IMG/VR virus record: IMGVR_UViG_2778261421_000003
Location: 1-37,073 of that record
Length of the DNA stretch: 37,073 bases
Direction: 5' to 3' (one strand)
From: a virus
Lineage: Duplodnaviria; Heunggongvirae; Uroviricota; Caudoviricetes
Part shown: one piece after another, positions 23,354 to 31,137 of the stretch
Numbering within the stretch: the stretch's first letter is position 1
Layout: the number at the start of each line of letters is the position of its first letter
Made by a program: the position numbers and the translations under genes
Notes under the pieces: model-generated
Seen by the model: only the letters and a program-made list of their open reading frames with translations
Told to the model about the DNA's origin: nothing
The model's database searches: none

Positions 23354-25105
23354 ATGATTCAGGATGCTTTTGTGCGCCAGCGTGCGCGGCAACTTTACTG
23401 GCAGGGTTATCCGCCCGCAGAAATATCACGTCTGATGGGAATAAACCCGAACACGATTTATGCGTGGAAAAAACGCGACCAGTGGGATGAAACGCCACCC
23501 GTGCAGCGTGTCACCCAGTCCATCGATGCGCGCCTCATCCAGCTTACTGAAAAACAGAATAAAACAGGCGGTGACTTTAAGGAAATAGACCTGCTGACCC
23601 GGCAGCTTAAAAAACTGCATGATGGCCAGCCGGATGCGACGGCCACAGGAAAGAAAGGCCGGGCGAAAAAACTCAAAAATCATTTCACGCCGGAACAGAT
23701 TGCCGCACTGCGGGAAAAAATCATCAGCAGGCTGGAGTGGCATCAGCGGGGCTGGTTTGACTCCCTGACCCTTTGCAGGGAAGCCGGGATACGTAACAGG
23801 ATGATCCTGAAATCCCGACAGATTGGGGCGACCTGGTATTTTGCTCAGGAAGCACTGCTGATGGCGCTGCGTGACGATGTGGCGCAACCTTACCAGCGTA
23901 ACCAGATTTTTTTGTCTGCGTCGCGTCGTCAGGCGTTCCAGTTTAAAAGCATTATTCAGGAGGCTGCATCTGAAGTTGATGTGGAGCTGAAAGGGGGCGA
24001 TAAAATCATCCTCTCCAACGGCGCAGAGCTGCATTTTCTTGGTACTTCTGCTGCGACGGCACAGTCCTACACGGGCAATTTTTATTTTGATGAATTTTTC
24101 TGGGTCAGTCGCTTTGCTGAACTGCGCAAGGTGGCTGGCGCTATGGCAACCCTCAGCGGACTGCGGCGCACCTACTTCTCCACGCCATCCACCGAAACGC
24201 ACGAGGCATACGCCTACTGGAACGGCGACCGCTGGAACGAGAAAAAGGCCTCGCATAAACGCCAGCGTTTTTCTGTGGACTGGAAAACGCTGCATAACGG
24301 GCTTATCTGCCCTGACCGGACGTGGCGGCAAATTGTCACGCTGGAAGATGTGGTTAATCACGGCTGGAAACACACCGATATTGATGAAATTCGTGATGAA
24401 AACACCGAAGACGAGTTCCTCAATCTCTATATGTGTGAGTTTGTCCGCGAAGGGGAATCGGCATTTAACCTGAATATCCTGATTGGCTGTGGTGTTGACG
24501 GATACGACGACTGGAAAGACTGGAAACCTTTTGCTCCCCGCCCGATGGGGAATCGTCCGGTATGGATTGGGTATGACGCAAACGGCAGCAGTGGAAACGG
24601 CGACAGCGGCGCTGTGTCCGTGGTGGTTCCTCCGGCTGTTCCTGGCGGCCGTTTTCGAACGGTGGAGACGCGACGCGTTCAGGGGCTGGAGTTTGAAGAA
24701 CAGGCCAGAGTCATTGAAGAGTTCACGTGTCGCTACAACGTGGAACACATCGGCATTGATGTGACAGGCGGGAACGGGGAGGCTGTTTATCAGATAGTGA
24801 AACGGTTTTTCCCTGCTGCTATTCCGTACACCTTCACGCTGTCATCAAAACGGTCGCTGGTACTGAAAATGCTGCAAATAATGCGTGCCGGGCGGTGGGA
24901 ATACGATCGCGCCGAACGCGAGCTGGTCGCAGCCTTTAACGCCGTGCGTAAGGTGAAAACACCGGGCGGCTTTATCACTTACGAAACGGACCGCGCGAGG
25001 GGGATCAGCCACGGCGACCTTGCGTGGGCAACCATGCTTGCTGTCATTAACGAACCAATTGGCGGCGAAGGAGAAAACGAGCGTTTCACGGTTATGGAGT
25101 TCTGA
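23354..25105 (+). CDS. P: Terminase ATPase (large) subunit gpP
   Basis: 583 aa (P2 P is about 590 aa), divergent from O and followed by Q. Confidence 0.85.
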   Translation: MIQDAFVRQRARQLYWQGYPPAEISRLMGINPNTIYAWKKRDQWDETPPVQRVTQSIDARLIQLTEKQNKTGGDFKEIDLLTRQLKKLHDGQPDATATGKKGRAKKLKNHFTPEQIAALREKIISRLEWHQRGWFDSLTLCREAGIRNRMILKSRQIGATWYFAQEALLMALRDDVAQPYQRNQIFLSASRRQAFQFKSIIQEAASEVDVELKGGDKIILSNGAELHFLGTSAATAQSYTGNFYFDEFFWVSRFAELRKVAGAMATLSGLRRTYFSTPSTETHEAYAYWNGDRWNEKKASHKRQRFSVDWKTLHNGLICPDRTWRQIVTLEDVVNHGWKHTDIDEIRDENTEDEFLNLYMCEFVREGESAFNLNILIGCGVDGYDDWKDWKPFAPRPMGNRPVWIGYDANGSSGNGDSGAVSVVVPPAVPGGRFRTVETRRVQGLEFEEQARVIEEFTCRYNVEHIGIDVTGGNGEAVYQIVKRFFPAAIPYTFTLSSKRSLVLKMLQIMRAGRWEYDRAERELVAAFNAVRKVKTPGGFITYETDRARGISHGDLAWATMLAVINEPIGGEGENERFTVMEF

Positions 25106-26151
25106 TGAGCAGAAAAAATAAAAAAGTGCGCATGAGTTCACGCATTGATCTCGCTGATGCGCTCAGGAAAGAATCATCGCTCAGTGCATTCACATTTGAT
25201 GGTCCTTATCGCCTGACCGGGCATGACCTGCTGGACAATATGTACTGTGCTGATAACGGGCGGTGGTATGAAACCCCGGTGGACTGGTACGGTCTGGCAA
25301 GAGCAGCCCGGCAAACGTCCTGGCATCAGTCTGCGCTTTACTTTAAGCGCAATGTATTACTCGGTTGCTACATCCCGCACCCGCTGCTTTCCCGGCAGGA
25401 TTTCTCGGCGCTGGCGCTGGACTGGTTTGTGTTCGGTAACGCATTCCTTGAGCTTCGAAGCAATATGCTCGGCGAACCGCTTAAATTACGGCACGCCCTG
25501 GCGAAATACATGCGACGCGGAAGCGATCTTGAATCATGGTGGTATGTGCAGGATGGCAAGGACGCGTTTCAGTTTCGTCCTGGCAAAGTGTGCCACCTGA
25601 TGAATCCGGATATTAACCAGGAAATCTACGGCATGCCGGAATATCTTGGCGCATTACTCTCGGCCAGCCTTTCTCATTCGGCGGACATGTTCAGAAAACT
25701 GTACTACGACAACGGATCCCACGCCGGGTGCATCATCTACATCGGTGCAGCGCAGGTAAACCGCGAAAGCATGGACTCCCTGAAAGAAACGCTACAGGGG
25801 GCACGTGGTGGTGGTGCGTTTAAAAACGTGCTCATTCATGCGCCCAACGGGGGCAAAGAGGGGGTGCAAATTTTGCCGTTCCAGCAGATCACCGCAAAAG
25901 ATGAATTCATGAATGTTAAGGCGGCATCCCGTGATGATGTGCTGGCTGCGCACCGCGTTCCGCCGCAACTGATGGGGGCGATGCCGGGCGAAAAAAGTGC
26001 GTTTGGCGATGTGGAGAAGGCAGCGCGGGTTTACGCAATTAACGAGCTGATGCCCGTCATGGAGGCTATGAAGCACATCAATGACTGGCTTGGCGAAGAG
26101 GTGATCCGTTTTAACTCTTATGCTCTTCTTGATGAAAAAACAGCCCCGTGA
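25105..26151 (+). CDS. Q: Portal protein gpQ
   Basis: 348 aa (P2 Q is about 344 aa), start overlapping the P stop. Confidence 0.85.
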   Translation: MSRKNKKVRMSSRIDLADALRKESSLSAFTFDGPYRLTGHDLLDNMYCADNGRWYETPVDWYGLARAARQTSWHQSALYFKRNVLLGCYIPHPLLSRQDFSALALDWFVFGNAFLELRSNMLGEPLKLRHALAKYMRRGSDLESWWYVQDGKDAFQFRPGKVCHLMNPDINQEIYGMPEYLGALLSASLSHSADMFRKLYYDNGSHAGCIIYIGAAQVNRESMDSLKETLQGARGGGAFKNVLIHAPNGGKEGVQILPFQQITAKDEFMNVKAASRDDVLAAHRVPPQLMGAMPGEKSAFGDVEKAARVYAINELMPVMEAMKHINDWLGEEVIRFNSYALLDEKTAP

Positions 26152-26168
26152 TGGGGCTGTCCTTTTTA
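26134..26168. terminator. Bidirectional rho-independent terminator at the Q stop
   Basis: ACAGCCCC-gtgat-GGGGCTGT with an A-run before and CCTTTTT after. The Q stop is in the loop and the stop of the convergent 174-aa gene abuts the T-run. Confidence 0.6.
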
Positions 26169-26690
26169 CCAGAGTTGAACCATTTTCTGGGTGCCGTCAG
26201 GCTTGAGATTATCAATTTCAGAGAGAACGTAATATTGAATGGCTTCACAAACGGTGGTGTAGGGTGAATTACCTTCTTTAAGTGGCACGATATTATTATT
26301 AACGCGAACCTGTATTTCATCGTTATACATTGCGATCGAAACAGGCGTGTGCACGAACGCGACTTCGCCAGGTGTGTCGTCAACCACCGTTTCAATACTA
26401 AAAGTCAGTTTTCGCTCATCATTGCTGCCCCATGCTTTGGGGGTAGCGGCAGGGATCTGGGATAAAGGCATTCTGCGAAATCCTTCGGCTGCTTCCAGTC
26501 CGCATGAAACGTAATGCTGGCGATTACCGTCGCTATCTGTCCAGGTCTGTGATGGCAGCTCCAGCGAGATTTCATAAGCATCAACAATGCCCTGGGCAAG
26601 GCGTACAAGCGGGGTCAGATCTTCATTGCGGCGAAAGCTCTCCTTTACCTGCTCCCGTTTTTCTCTTAACTGCTTGTAATTAATGACCAT
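26166..26690 (-). CDS. Hypothetical protein (174 aa), unrecognised cargo in the old/tin position
   Basis: Start chosen at MVINYKQL, preceded by GGAGG. No motif I can assign. GC is lower than the structural genes. Convergent with Q. Confidence 0.5.
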   Translation of the reverse strand: MVINYKQLREKREQVKESFRRNEDLTPLVRLAQGIVDAYEISLELPSQTWTDSDGNRQHYVSCGLEAAEGFRRMPLSQIPAATPKAWGSNDERKLTFSIETVVDDTPGEVAFVHTPVSIAMYNDEIQVRVNNNIVPLKEGNSPYTTVCEAIQYYVLSEIDNLKPDGTQKMVQLW

Positions 26691-27189
26691 AAGACAGCCT
26701 CCATTGATTTCTTTGCTCGTATTTTGCACTTATGAAGTATGGTCGGCAAGGTGCCGTATCGCTGACGCGCTTCGCTTGTCTGCTGCTTCGCCGGGGCATA
26801 AAAAATTTATGCCCCGGCTCTCCAGCTCCTGTATCAATCAGATAATTTCACGACGCCTTCCAGTTTATCGCCACCATCGACGGTCAGACTCTTACGCAAT
26901 TCCACCGCGTTGACTGTATGTTCTCGCTGCCTCAGTGCGATTTTGACGGCCTTACCTTTCACCCCATCAAATCAAAAGCCCTCACGCCTTTTTCATGCTC
27001 AGCGTGAGAAATACGGCCATTCTGTTGTGTCTCTGCGACATCGTTCAGGGAATGCTATTTACCCCCTGAAACGCGGGCTGTTCCCCCGTCACCTGCGCGC
27101 AGAAAAAACGCGTTTTTTTGTGCACGCACGGATCCCTGACGGATCCAGTCGCCACGCGGGCCGGAAGGGTAAAAAGTTGTTCAAAAAAA

Positions 27190-27227
27190 TTGTGCAAATT
27201 TGTGCACTATTGTGCGGTGTATAAAAT
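27190..27227 (+). promoter_or_regulatory. Three TTGTGC repeats at 10-bp spacing with a TATAAAAT box upstream of the antitoxin gene
   Basis: TTGTGC at 27190, 27200 and 27210, then TATAAAAT at 27220-27227. Could be a promoter with operator repeats for autoregulation. Confidence 0.35.
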
Positions 27228-27289
27228 GAAAATATGGCGGTGTTATTACTGCCCAACAAGCCGTTATACTTACGTTATGGGCGTGCATA

Positions 27290-27646
27290 ATGGAAATGAA
27301 TATGAAAACTGTAACTGATGATGAATTTCGTGAGAACCTGAGTGAAATTCTGGATTACCTTTCTTCCGGTGGCAGTGTCGTTATCACTGCGCAGGGAGGG
27401 AAGGATGTTGTTCTTGCTGGTTCTGATCTTAGTCCTGAAATACGGGCTGTCCTTGGCAAAACCAAAAAACTGCGGGATCAAATAAACAAAATGAAGCAAC
27501 CACTCTTAATAAATGCAGTGAGAGATCTGGAAAAACGTCATCCAGCTCTTGTCGCACAGAGAAAAAAAGGATTGTCTTTTGAAGATGCAATGAAGCGTAC
27601 AAGAGAAAAACATGCGGATATCATTAAAAAGCTTGAGGATAACTGA
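27290..27646 (+). CDS. Phd/YefM-like antitoxin (extended, about 118 aa)
   Basis: N-terminal region VTDDEFRENLSEILDYLSSGGSVVITAQGGKDVVLAG resembles Phd/YefM antitoxins. Stop overlaps the start of the Doc-like gene (TGATG). Alternative start at the ATG at 27302. Confidence 0.55.
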   Translation: MEMNMKTVTDDEFRENLSEILDYLSSGGSVVITAQGGKDVVLAGSDLSPEIRAVLGKTKKLRDQINKMKQPLLINAVRDLEKRHPALVAQRKKGLSFEDAMKRTREKHADIIKKLEDN

Positions 27647-28053
27647 TGGACATAGTGTTTTTGTCAAAAGAACAAGTAGAACGTATCCATGCTGAAACTT
27701 TACCCCAGAGCGGAAATGCCAATGACGGGCTACTTGAAGGTGCTTTAAATCGCGTCAGGACACTACACTACTATGAAGGGGTTGATGATATTCATGCTCT
27801 GGCTGCTATGTATTTGATTGGTATAGCCAAGGCTCATGCCTTTCATGATGGGAATAAACGCACAGCTTTTCAGGCTGCATCAATATTTTTAATGATGAAC
27901 TCTTCCGAACTTTCAAACTCCCTGCTGCTGGTTAAATTAACGGTGTTTTCAGCAATGGGGATAGCTACCCTTGAGGAAGTTACCTTTGCTTTGAAATTGC
28001 TGTCTGATTATGGCAATGAATTAATCAGCGACTACGAAGAAGATTATATTTAA
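27646..28053 (+). CDS. doc: Doc (Fic/Doc family) toxin
   Basis: 135 aa with HAFHDGNKRTAF, matching the Fic/Doc HxFx(D/N)GNKR catalytic motif. Translationally coupled to the upstream antitoxin. Confidence 0.75.
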   Translation: MDIVFLSKEQVERIHAETLPQSGNANDGLLEGALNRVRTLHYYEGVDDIHALAAMYLIGIAKAHAFHDGNKRTAFQAASIFLMMNSSELSNSLLLVKLTVFSAMGIATLEEVTFALKLLSDYGNELISDYEEDYI

Positions 28054-28314
28054 TGCTGGCATACTCTGTCGTGTTAAGACAACAGCCTTTGCGGAAACAG
28101 GGCAGGGTGCCAGACTTGCCCGCAGCGCGTCTGACATGAGCAGTTATTCATCTTTTTTATTGTTTTTCTCCATGCAGGGCGACAGTGCGTCCATGCCAGC
28201 TTGATGTTGGTGGAGCCGTCGTCGATACAAATTTTCATGTCGCTTTTCCTTATGTTGATTAATTAATCGGTTACAGGATTTTTAAATCCCGCTTTTGCCT
28301 GTTTTGTGCGCGCT

Positions 28315-31137
28315 TCATATATCGCTGCGCGTTTTTTGCTCATTTACGGGATTTGTGAGTCCCGTTTCTGTCTGTTTTTTGTTTCCACTGGTCAGGCCAC
28401 CCCGCAGCAGGTCTGCTTTGCGGCTGGCGCGTTCAGTGGTTTCACTGATTCTCTGTGCGTGCTCTGCGTCGCGGATGGCGCGCAGCATGTCAGAAAGCAC
28501 GGTAACGGGTGTTTTCATGGTGTTCTGGTCCTGCTGAAGTGTGGATGCCAGGCGTGCGGCGGCTTCAGGGTCTGATGCCCCCAGCTGTGCCAGATAGCTG
28601 GCGACCGGGTTATGGCGGATCTCCGTGCTGCTTACGCCATGATTACGGCTCAGGCGCTGCCAGAGCTGCGTGATTCGGCTGTCCAGGCGGGTATCCGGTT
28701 TGCGTACAATTTCAAATCCCTGCGGTGCAATGATGCTGCCGTCAACGTACAGACTGCCGCCCCGTAACAGGTGCTGCATCTGTTGTTCACCGATATGCAG
28801 GCCGAGAGATTCAGCAGACTCCCGCCATTCTTTAGCGAGTAATTCGTGGTTATCAGGCAAAGGCCGCTGCTGTTTGCGGCTCTGTGTCCAGCTCTGCGCT
28901 TCATCACTGCTGTTTTTTGCCTGTTTGTCACGAAGCGAACGCATCAGCGCCCGGCGTTCGTGCCGTTTCAGTGAGCGCATCCATTCGTTCACTTCAACGC
29001 CGTCAGGGAGCTGCGGCCACGGTGCTGGCCGTTCTTCCGGCTGTTCTGTCCCGTTGTTGTCCGTTTCCTGTACACGGGGACAGTTATTGCCACGAGTCCA
29101 AGGGGCGGCATGGCCGCCCTGAAGGTCAAAACCATTTTCGCGGGCGTTGTCTTCTGGTTCTGGTTTACGTCTTACCAACTTCCAGTTATCCGGATGCGTG
29201 CACACACGGGAGGATTCCCCGATGAGTGGTGACCAGATCCCGTAAATCTGTACGCTCTGTTCGCCGTAATCGTTCAGCTCATCTGCGAGGTCGTAGGCGG
29301 TGCGAATCAGGTAGTCCTTGCGTGGAACAAGCACGCCACCCTGTTTTTCAATGTAGGAGGCAAAACACCCGGCATCAGCGGCAGCGAGTACCGCATCCAT
29401 TGCATCATCCTTCAGCCGTTGCGGGCCTTCCGGGTTGCGTGCCATCTGGCTGGCAAGGCGGCGGAGTTCACGCCATACCTGACGGGAGGGGATGCCAAAG
29501 AACTGGAACTGGCGGACCCGATGAAGACGCGCCCAGCCAATGGCGCGCTCCACGCTCTCGGCCATTGATTTTCCGGTTTCGTGGTCAACGCGTGGCTTGC
29601 CCGTTTTCGGGTCGATGCCATCCACGGCGCGGCTGTCCAGGTTCTTTCCGATGTAGGTCGCGATATAGCTGGTTGGTGTGCCTTTTGAGCCGTCGACATA
29701 CTCCGCCTTAAAGCGCGGAGTAATATCATTGCCCAGCTCGTGGCGGTCTTCCTGAATGGCAATATCGCGGGTGATGGCCACGATGCTGTCGATTTCTTCC
29801 GGATGAGCAAAGACCATCATATGCCAGTGCACGGTGCCGTCATGGTGAGGCTCCACCGTGCGGATGCCATACCAGCGAAGACCGTCGCGGTTCAGTTTTT
29901 TGCGGACCGCCGCAAAAAACGTGTTAACCAGGTAATCGCTGGAGTCGCGCATGGTGGCCCCGTTCCATTTGGGATTCGGATGACCGTTCTCTGTTGTGGC
30001 GTGGTATTTTGACGGGCAGGTGACAGTCAGAAACACCGCTTTGTCGCCACGGGCTTCGGCCAGAAGTTCCAGCCCCTTCATGGTGGCCATCATTTCTGCC
30101 TTACGGTGAACCGGGTTACTTACTCCCGCGTAATACACTGTCTCGAGATCAATCGTGAACCCGTCTTCGTTTTCCAGCATGAAACTTTTCAGGAAATCGC
30201 GTGTTTTCTCGCGCTGTGCGCGAAACTCGCTTAACGCGTCCTGGCTCAGATAGGGTGATGTTTTTCTGGAAACCAGACAGGCGGCGCGGAGTTGTTCTTC
30301 TCTCCACTCGCAACGTAACAGCCACAGTTTGCGTTTCCACCATTCCGCACAGGTCAGGCGAAGGACTGCGCCCGGCAGCAGCTCCGTGTCCGGTTCGTTC
30401 CTCCGGTCTTTATCTGTTGTCAGTGCGTCATAATGTGGAGGCATGATGTGCAGGTGTAACGCCATGCGGGCCAGCATCTGATACGCCTTCAGCGTTACAT
30501 CCATGGTCAGCTCGCCATCTCTGGCACCAAAGCCATCACAGAGTTTTTCGAAGGTGCTGCTGAACATCGCCGCCGTCATGGTGGCCAGCGACTGTATCTG
30601 GTGTTTGTTGAGCTGCGGCAGGTAAAGCAAATCGTCCAGGCGTTCGCGTCCGGCAAGGGAGCGATAACCCGGTGTCAGCCAGTGTCCGTCAGTGCGATCC
30701 AGACGTTCGAATATTTTGCGCAGGGTTCCGCGTGCATAGCGTTCCGCCTGCCAGCTCTTTTTGCCTTTCCGGCGATCGGCTTCCTGTTTTTTGCGCAGGA
30801 AGGAGAGGTGGCGAATAAGCGGATCGCGCAGATAGGACGGCAGCAGGCGCAGCGAGGCCATGGCTTCATCCACCGCGCCACGTGCCTGTTTTCTGGCTTC
30901 TCTGGCCAGTGTGATGGTTTTGTCCTGTTTTTCCTGTGCGTCCAGGCTTTTATTAATCAGGTTGCCCAGCGGCGTGGCGGAGAACGCCGCATCAGCCATT
31001 TCCTGGCGGCGCTCGTTCTCTGCCCGGTAGGCATCCAGCCAGGAGGAAAGCTCGGATTCAGGAGCGGGGATTCCCGTTCCTTCACGACCCACTGCGTGGC
31101 GCGGTTGTTGCCAGTCCCTGATGTACTCTGCCGTCAT
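28315..31137 (-). CDS. A: Replication initiation endonuclease gpA (rolling-circle initiator)
   Basis: Motifs VTCPSKYHA and HWHMMVF are typical of P2/186 A-family proteins. The 940-aa ORF is longer than P2 A (761 aa), so the true start may be internal. Confidence 0.8.
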   Translation of the reverse strand: MTAEYIRDWQQPRHAVGREGTGIPAPESELSSWLDAYRAENERRQEMADAAFSATPLGNLINKSLDAQEKQDKTITLAREARKQARGAVDEAMASLRLLPSYLRDPLIRHLSFLRKKQEADRRKGKKSWQAERYARGTLRKIFERLDRTDGHWLTPGYRSLAGRERLDDLLYLPQLNKHQIQSLATMTAAMFSSTFEKLCDGFGARDGELTMDVTLKAYQMLARMALHLHIMPPHYDALTTDKDRRNEPDTELLPGAVLRLTCAEWWKRKLWLLRCEWREEQLRAACLVSRKTSPYLSQDALSEFRAQREKTRDFLKSFMLENEDGFTIDLETVYYAGVSNPVHRKAEMMATMKGLELLAEARGDKAVFLTVTCPSKYHATTENGHPNPKWNGATMRDSSDYLVNTFFAAVRKKLNRDGLRWYGIRTVEPHHDGTVHWHMMVFAHPEEIDSIVAITRDIAIQEDRHELGNDITPRFKAEYVDGSKGTPTSYIATYIGKNLDSRAVDGIDPKTGKPRVDHETGKSMAESVERAIGWARLHRVRQFQFFGIPSRQVWRELRRLASQMARNPEGPQRLKDDAMDAVLAAADAGCFASYIEKQGGVLVPRKDYLIRTAYDLADELNDYGEQSVQIYGIWSPLIGESSRVCTHPDNWKLVRRKPEPEDNARENGFDLQGGHAAPWTRGNNCPRVQETDNNGTEQPEERPAPWPQLPDGVEVNEWMRSLKRHERRALMRSLRDKQAKNSSDEAQSWTQSRKQQRPLPDNHELLAKEWRESAESLGLHIGEQQMQHLLRGGSLYVDGSIIAPQGFEIVRKPDTRLDSRITQLWQRLSRNHGVSSTEIRHNPVASYLAQLGASDPEAAARLASTLQQDQNTMKTPVTVLSDMLRAIRDAEHAQRISETTERASRKADLLRGGLTSGNKKQTETGLTNPVNEQKTRSDI

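Follow-up and report, generated by a model that had tools for sequence, protein, structure and literature searches.

A single-gene cassette beside the portal gene of a P88-like prophage encodes a candidate phage-exclusion protein of family phrog_5091

The systems that most resemble the gene described here are the tin and old genes of phage P2 and the classical morons. P2 Tin is a non-enzymatic protein that blocks the growth of T-even phages by binding a phage protein. Tin and old are non-essential prophage cargo of the cos-proximal interval between genes Q and A, where they form an independent transcription unit. In the P2 record, cosL corresponds to positions 1-19, the terminator tQ to 160-181 and Q to the complement strand of 187-1221; old and tin are found on the opposite arm, the A side of cos, and are transcribed from a start ~150 nt from cosR in the direction leading from cos toward A, with which they are convergent. 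The classical morons of the lambda/HK97 type, described by Hendrix and colleagues, are units of promoter, gene and terminator that deviate in GC content, are absent from near-identical relatives and turn up in unrelated phage backbones at the borders of operons, for instance beside the tape-measure gene. HK97 gp15, an inner-membrane protein, is a superinfection-exclusion moron in the tail operon. The folds of actin capping-protein beta and of the PI31/Fbxo7 FP domain are also named among the closest known systems. The defence hotspot of P2-like phages has been defined as everything between gpQ and gpA (Rousset 2022, PMC9122126), and the first-pass annotation of the present DNA, which treated the Q-A interval as a known variable cargo position of such phages, is in line with this published definition.

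The window, by which we mean the whole stretch of 37,073 nucleotides analyzed, is a P88-like prophage (Xuanwuvirus, Peduoviridae, P2-like) that is 99.75% identical over 4 kb to Escherichia coli strain 300444. As had been annotated, it contains a convergent ORF of 174 aa between the portal gene Q (25105-26151) and the replication gene A (28315-31137). This ORF occupies positions 26166-26690 of the minus strand and encodes a protein of 19.8 kDa and pI 4.9 that is a member of phrog_5091 and is identical to WP_000236496.1, the copy in strain 300444, which is entered in RefSeq as 'hypothetical protein'. The lower GC content noted earlier was also observed: the ORF has 47.4% GC and 48% GC3, whereas the corresponding values for P, Q, N and A are 53-57% and 59-69% (53 and 60%, respectively, in Q; 57 and 63% in A). 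The dN/dS ratio of E. coli alleles with DNA differences of up to 5% was 0.08-0.15, i.e., close to 0.1. Since this ratio is accompanied by homologues down to 22% identity, the ORF does not represent a chance frame but is a functional protein-coding gene under purifying selection.

Close and distant homologues alike open with M-x-I-x-Y, and we therefore consider the ATG at 26690 to be the true start codon. A GTG at 26729, from which a protein of 187 aa would be translated, was rejected because the homologues open at the position of the ATG; it sits within the spacer of the putative promoter described below. The Shine-Dalgarno sequence GGAGG (26698-26702, minus strand), read from the sequence, is located 7 nt upstream of the ATG, and GGAG is likewise kept in the upstream region of the Salmonella homologue. 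Further upstream on the minus strand we noted a putative sigma-70 promoter (26721-26749) that is composed of the -35 hexamer TTGCCG (26744-26749), a 17-nt spacer and the -10 hexamer CAAAAT (26721-26726). It matches 8 of the 12 consensus positions, which is under the threshold of the promoter scanner, and was not called. The upstream region in Salmonella retains TTGTCT, a 17-nt spacer and CAAAAT, while the sequence of the spacer and the remaining sequence have diverged. The conserved hexamers and their spacing are consistent with the phylogenetic footprint of a weak sigma-70 promoter within the cassette.

At its other end, the gene shares a bidirectional intrinsic terminator with Q (26140-26160, both strands), consisting of a 9-bp stem with 6 GC pairs. 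The hairpin overlaps the stop codon of Q (26149-26151) and lies 5 nt from the stop codon of the 174-aa ORF (26166-26168), in line with the bidirectional terminator previously described at the Q stop. Its T-run on the plus strand was detected by a terminator scan, and that on the minus strand (complement of 26135-26139) was read directly from the sequence. A terminator also ends the homologues in Salmonella and in phage CharmingMan.

The gene and these signals are contained in a present/absent cassette of ~640 bp (26121-26762). Its edges were defined by BLAST and MAFFT against P88, P884B11 and three prophages without the gene, and the alignment of the zone comprised P88, P884B11 and eleven prophages. 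Homology to the gene-less relatives ends at 26120-26123 and restarts at 26758-26763. In place of the cassette, gene-less phages carry ~25 bp of unrelated sequence, which includes the last ~10 codons of the portal gene. The cassette is thus an indel of 640 bp with sharp junctions, and it shares with the classical morons deviant base composition, a terminator of its own, absence from near-identical relatives and a scatter of homologues across unrelated backbones, with a putative promoter in addition. The analysis showed that the 174-aa gene is an autonomous single-gene accessory cassette, a moron, made up of promoter-like hexamers, a strong ribosome binding site, the ORF and a bidirectional terminator. 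The edge of the cassette inside Q (26121-26151) is visible in the C terminus of the portal protein, which reads ...SYALLDEKTAP in phages with the gene and ...PYALLDTQPTS in those without it.

The abundance of the gene was determined in 5,426 complete E. coli genomes; the genome counts are inflated by clonal sampling, e.g., of O25b:H4-ST131. The gene was present in 397 genomes, the portal 3' end of the type found in the window in 1,079 genomes (1,205 places) and the P88-type 'empty' junction in 771 genomes. The locus is hence variable among relatives, and the gene is carried by about one third of P88-type prophages. Alternation with known defence genes, which had been suggested as a check, was not observed at this site; the Q-proximal site is essentially binary and contains either the cassette or nothing. 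Only two plasmid records carry the gene. The neighbouring hotspot, in turn, contains many different cargoes in genomes with the gene, namely, Phd-Doc, DUF4760 with a hypothetical gene, an Ea22-like gene, an XF1762-family gene or none. Since the gene co-occurs with so many different cargo sets, a partner gene is not needed. In accordance, no conserved adjacent partner, which is a criterion for type II toxin-antitoxin systems, was found across 12 or more contexts.

Beyond the cassette, the alignment of P88-like relatives revealed a conserved block of 458 bp (26758-27215) with an identity of 92-99% across relatives and of 92-95% in the gene-less ones. The block contains an ORF of 42 codons (26834-26962, minus strand), annotated as hypothetical in several phages, and tandem AAAWTTGTGC repeats (27186-27205). 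A perfect hairpin with a 13-bp stem (26790-26818) corresponds to the post-Q hairpin of P88; this ancestral hairpin is now located upstream of the putative promoter of the cassette. The linear record of P884B11 is cut exactly at window position 27171/27172, and both of its ends are contiguous in the window. The break lies inside a GC-rich ~20-mer flanked by A/T tracts. Searches of the window with the P2 cos 19-mer (up to 3 mismatches) and, by BLAST, with the circularised P2 cos region revealed no similarity, and the assignment of cos therefore rests on the break in the P884B11 record, from which cos is probably located at ~27150-27172.

On the A side of this block, a variable cargo swap site (27215-28189) is the positional equivalent of P2 old-tin, and its contents differ among relatives. 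In the window, and likewise in strain 300444, it contains Phd (27290-27646) and Doc (27646-28053) on the plus strand. Other relatives contain an S8 peptidase with an AAA ATPase, a DUF3800 gene, an Ea22-like gene, DUF4760 with a hypothetical gene, an XF1762-family gene with hypotheticals, or small ORFs; parR and parM usually come after this cargo. The first-pass annotation had placed the 174-aa gene where P2 carries old and tin. This placement does not hold, because in the window the position and orientation of old-tin are taken by Phd-Doc (27290-28053), whereas the 174-aa gene is located on the other side of the block, between tQ and cos, a stretch in which P2 has only ~160 nt of non-coding DNA, provided that the probable cos is correct. 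The Q-A interval of P88-type phages consists of two independent variable sites that flank a conserved block, which probably holds cos, and swap-site behaviour is confined to the A-side site. This two-site arrangement around the probable cos is the most useful by-product of the analysis. It refines the gpA-gpQ hotspot map of P2-like phages for the P88 type, and arguments for defence by position are to be made per site and not per interval.

The protein had been annotated as unrecognised. This agrees with the Pfam, NCBIfam and PADLOC searches, but the protein is contained in the PHROGs and RefSeq collections. The match to phrog_5091 (PHROGs v4, unknown function) is full length, with an E-value of 1.4e-67 and 227.5 bits over residues 1-168 of the protein and 1-164 of the 164 profile positions. 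This family has no assigned function, and membership is thus silent on mechanism. The alleles verified at the locus are WP_000236489, 93, 95 and 96. Close relatives (46-95% identity) were found in E. coli, Yersinia, Salmonella and Trabulsiella; among the representative genomes scanned, those of Salmonella enterica and Trabulsiella were the only ones to carry them. When 1.84 billion representatives were searched with a profile, 89 proteins were retrieved, nearly all of them stand-alone, 155-185 aa long and 22-35% identical to the query, including distant homologues from Providencia, Morganella and Xenorhabdus. None of the 49 family members scanned matched a family in Pfam, NCBIfam or PADLOC, and there was no informative domain fusion among the 89 representatives. 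P0049 (3,099 aa) and P0094 were rejected as repeat-driven false matches. Conserved motifs of the family are Y39..S42-L43-x-L45-P...W50-x-D..G....Y60-V61, F97-x-I-x-T101-V-x-D-D-x-P107 and (E)VC..I(K/Q), the last in the C-terminal helix.

The homologues occur in several genomic contexts, two of which were added by searches with single distant members as query. In Salmonella P2-like prophages (62% identity), the gene is convergent with the portal gene and followed by the terminator, and the conserved block is located upstream. A Morganella P2-like prophage with a Toprim primase also has its homologue (23% identity) convergent with the portal gene. In a Trabulsiella 186-like prophage (46% identity), the homologue comes directly after gpA and precedes a HicB-family gene and a pair of Phd-Doc genes. 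The lambdoid phage CharmingMan and an IMG/VR contig carry it between the Q antiterminator and the holin gene, and another lambdoid contig between the spanin gene and an HNH endonuclease gene. In E217-like myovirus prophages from Providencia and metagenomes, it is located between the tube/chaperone genes and the tape-measure gene. The lambdoid and E217-like homologues lie inside late operons on the late strand. All contexts are typical moron sites in temperate-phage backbones. Since no neighbouring gene is conserved across them, the 174-aa gene acts alone. When four family members were compared by tblastn with 50,697 phage records, only P88-like records and CharmingMan were matched, and none of these belongs to a known virulent phage type.

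In the E217-like prophages, the homologue was always found at the junction of the tube/chaperone genes and the tape-measure gene (~800 aa), at 7001-7519 in L013, 6001-6519 in L021 and L022, and 3496-4014 in L023. A structural or tail-assembly role in these phages, considered because of this position, was rejected: the Providencia homologue had no tblastn match in any deposited phage and is thus not a conserved part of the tail. Beyond the tape-measure gene, their cargo includes DUF4431, an Mrr-type nuclease, Arc repressors and Bro-N, which makes for an unusual, moron-rich tail module.

The 174-aa protein itself gave no match in Pfam or NCBIfam, and none of the PADLOC-DB v2.0.0 defence HMMs matched at E <= 1. 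Homology to structural or packaging proteins was not found in Pfam or the annotated PHROGs, and the best Foldseek match in BFVD had an E-value of 0.06. A search of the PDB with the family profile returned nothing below an E-value of 0.1. Single-sequence phmmer matches to designed helical-repeat proteins in the PDB (e.g., 5cwb, E-value 2.6e-7) were discarded as spurious, since they were composed of three per-repeat matches with E-values of ~2.5 each at residues 124-168. The 5cwb case illustrates that repeat proteins can give misleading whole-sequence E-values. The AF2 model had a pLDDT of 90.3 and a pTM of 0.81 with an alignment of 49 sequences, and a pLDDT of 78.9 with 11 sequences. The modelled fold is alpha+beta and consists of a helical hairpin (residues 5-42), a mainly antiparallel sheet (49-135) and a helix (145-159). 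The protein is acidic, with a net charge of about -7 at a pI of 4.9, and direct reading of its sequence revealed no signal peptide, no hydrophobic or membrane segment and no catalytic motif. It is a small cytoplasmic protein and may be a non-enzymatic and probably dimeric binding module.

These properties set the protein apart from the counterparts introduced above. Homology to P2 Tin and Old was rejected: the comparison of Tin (253 aa) with the family profile by hhalign resulted in a probability of 0.4% and an E-value of 0.16 over 10 columns, and tblastn of a phage collection that contains P2 gave no P2 match. Old, of about 590 aa, has an OLD ATPase and a TOPRIM domain, whereas the 174-aa protein has no Pfam domain. 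The protein is soluble, acidic and lacks a transmembrane segment, in contrast to the inner-membrane protein HK97 gp15, with which it has no sequence relationship.

The gene is already catalogued: in PHROGs, as a hypothetical protein in RefSeq, in the locus tables of Rousset 2022 and probably in the candidate list of DefensePredictor. Alleles of the series WP_0002364xx are entered as 'hypothetical' in Table S5 of Rousset 2022, and the sequence of the gene had no match in the supplements of that study, including the table of constructs assayed (PMC9122126). DefensePredictor lists WP_000236487.1 as 'Predicted novel defense gene' with mean log-odds of 4.65, the strict cut-off being 4 (DeWeirdt et al., PMC13092281, Table S10). 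WP_000236487.1 is an E. coli hypothetical protein of 174 aa (525 nt) with an accession adjacent to the locus alleles, and this size and accession adjacency suggest that it is probably an allele of the 174-aa gene. The score is just over the cut-off and partly reflects genomic context. The overall experimental validation rate of that study was 45%; the complete table of screened units (S6) contains no WP_0002364xx accession, and WP_000236487.1 is absent from the cloned or validated units among the matches listed in the tables (PMC13092281). Literature searches by accession, PHROG identifier and peptide string yielded no published characterisation of the gene. We class it as an uncharacterised prophage moron, or hotspot-region cargo, the anatomy of which will not surprise a specialist.

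Considering the lysogen-style cassette, the occurrence in temperate phages only, the location in recognised cargo regions and the DefensePredictor call on the probable allele, we tentatively favour superinfection exclusion or defence, in which the 174-aa protein would protect the lysogen by stoichiometric binding; we would place this reading somewhat below an even chance. The gene would be transcribed in the lysogen from the putative promoter of the cassette, and the protein, probably as a dimer, would act stoichiometrically on a protein of the incoming phage or on a host factor that this phage needs. Superinfecting phages would thus be excluded by a 'binder/poison' logic like that of Tin and not by an enzymatic or abortive-infection logic. 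In broader terms, the product is most likely a non-enzymatic binding protein used in phage conflict, and the gene is a reasonable candidate for a phage-exclusion protein. The first-pass annotation had reached a similar proposal by position. It is supported in part by the published cargo hotspot, the accessory distribution (397 of 5,426 genomes), the lack of similarity to structural or packaging proteins and the predicted defence function of the probable allele (PMC13092281), but the positional argument was imprecise, and guilt by alternation falls because known defence systems do not take the place of the cassette at this binary site. Other observations speak against exclusion. The late-operon homologues in lambdoid and E217-like phages would equally fit a gene expressed in the lytic phase, arms-race genes do not typically combine purifying selection with so little diversification of alleles, no PADLOC family was matched, the DefensePredictor score is marginal and context dependent, and the putative promoter matches the consensus weakly.

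The late-operon homologues bear on a further explanation, according to which the acidic protein neutralises an immune protein of the host or of a rival prophage much as Ocr, Acr or anti-CBASS proteins do, during infection or induction. A small, acidic, non-enzymatic and single-domain protein would suit such counter-defence or host takeover, as would the late or lytic transcription units of the lambdoid and E217-like homologues; the 174-aa gene would also be nearest to the left end of virion DNA, if cos is at about 27171. However, such genes would be equally useful to virulent phages, and none of the 50,697 records yielded a virulent-phage homologue. The gene in the window, moreover, faces the late operon in convergent orientation, is separate from the early operon and has its own promoter-like element; neither an aca-type regulator nor an anti-defence island is present in its vicinity. 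We regard counter-defence as unlikely. Should the protein be either an exclusion or a counter-defence factor, the repertoire of phage conflict would gain an enzyme-free family that has no structural assignment. A more far-reaching proposition is that phrog_5091 and the ~90 diverged cluster representatives from Enterobacterales prophages form a new single-protein, non-enzymatic anti-phage factor that has a fold not represented in the PDB and binds a protein of the invader, or else act in packaging or satellite hijacking, given the repeated adjacency to portal, cos or terminase; this proposition is doubtful.

The family is common in clinically important E. coli (~7% of complete genomes, including ST131) and occurs in at least three temperate phage architectures. 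Its frequent occurrence in pathogenic lineages, O25b:H4-ST131 and O111:H8 among them, together with the moron behaviour and the lysogen-type structure of the cassette, could also point to an orphan immunity or other lysogenic-conversion factor that guards the lysogen from a colicin, a CDI effector or a T6SS effector, or alters host physiology, and does not act on phages. We consider this quite improbable, as Pfam and NCBIfam contain no matching immunity family, none of the contexts examined contained a cognate toxin gene, action in the envelope is impossible for a protein that has neither a signal peptide nor a membrane segment, and the lineage prevalence may reflect nothing but clonal sampling. 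P4-like satellites share the cos of their helper. A packaging-tied accessory that acts at portal, terminase or cos and modulates packaging or resists hijacking by such satellites is highly unlikely: although the gene is convergent with and adjacent to the portal gene in three diverged P2-like lineages (E. coli, Salmonella at 62% and Morganella at 23% identity), lies ~480 nt from the probable cos in a cassette that rewrites the last ~10 portal residues, and has a lambdoid homologue adjoining an HNH gene of the type that usually accompanies terminase, it is missing from two thirds of otherwise near-identical phages and is thus dispensable, other homologues have positions remote from packaging genes (directly behind gpA, between Q and holin, and in the tail operon), and the protein has no similarity to packaging or structural families. 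What is left beyond exclusion and these rivals corresponds to a gene of no significant function or to a reading that we did not consider. As matters stand, the gene is one of many hypothetical cargo genes, already catalogued, with a probable allele that is ML-flagged.

The cargo on the A side of the interval deserves a brief description. Phd-Doc is the plasmid-addiction module of P1. The pair in the window is complete, with ~40% GC, and comprises an antitoxin of 118 aa with an N-terminal Phd/YefM domain and a Doc protein of 135 aa with the HxFxDGNKR motif. Most P88-like relatives have intact parM and parR, and the prophage in the window keeps a parM remnant of 54 codons (28074-28238, minus strand). 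The acquisition of Phd-Doc seems to have come with a deletion of the partition module at this site, so that partition was exchanged for an addiction function. The replication endonuclease that follows, the gpA homologue at 28315-31137 on the minus strand, has 940 aa and is thus ~180 aa longer than P2 gpA (761 aa according to the record coordinates).
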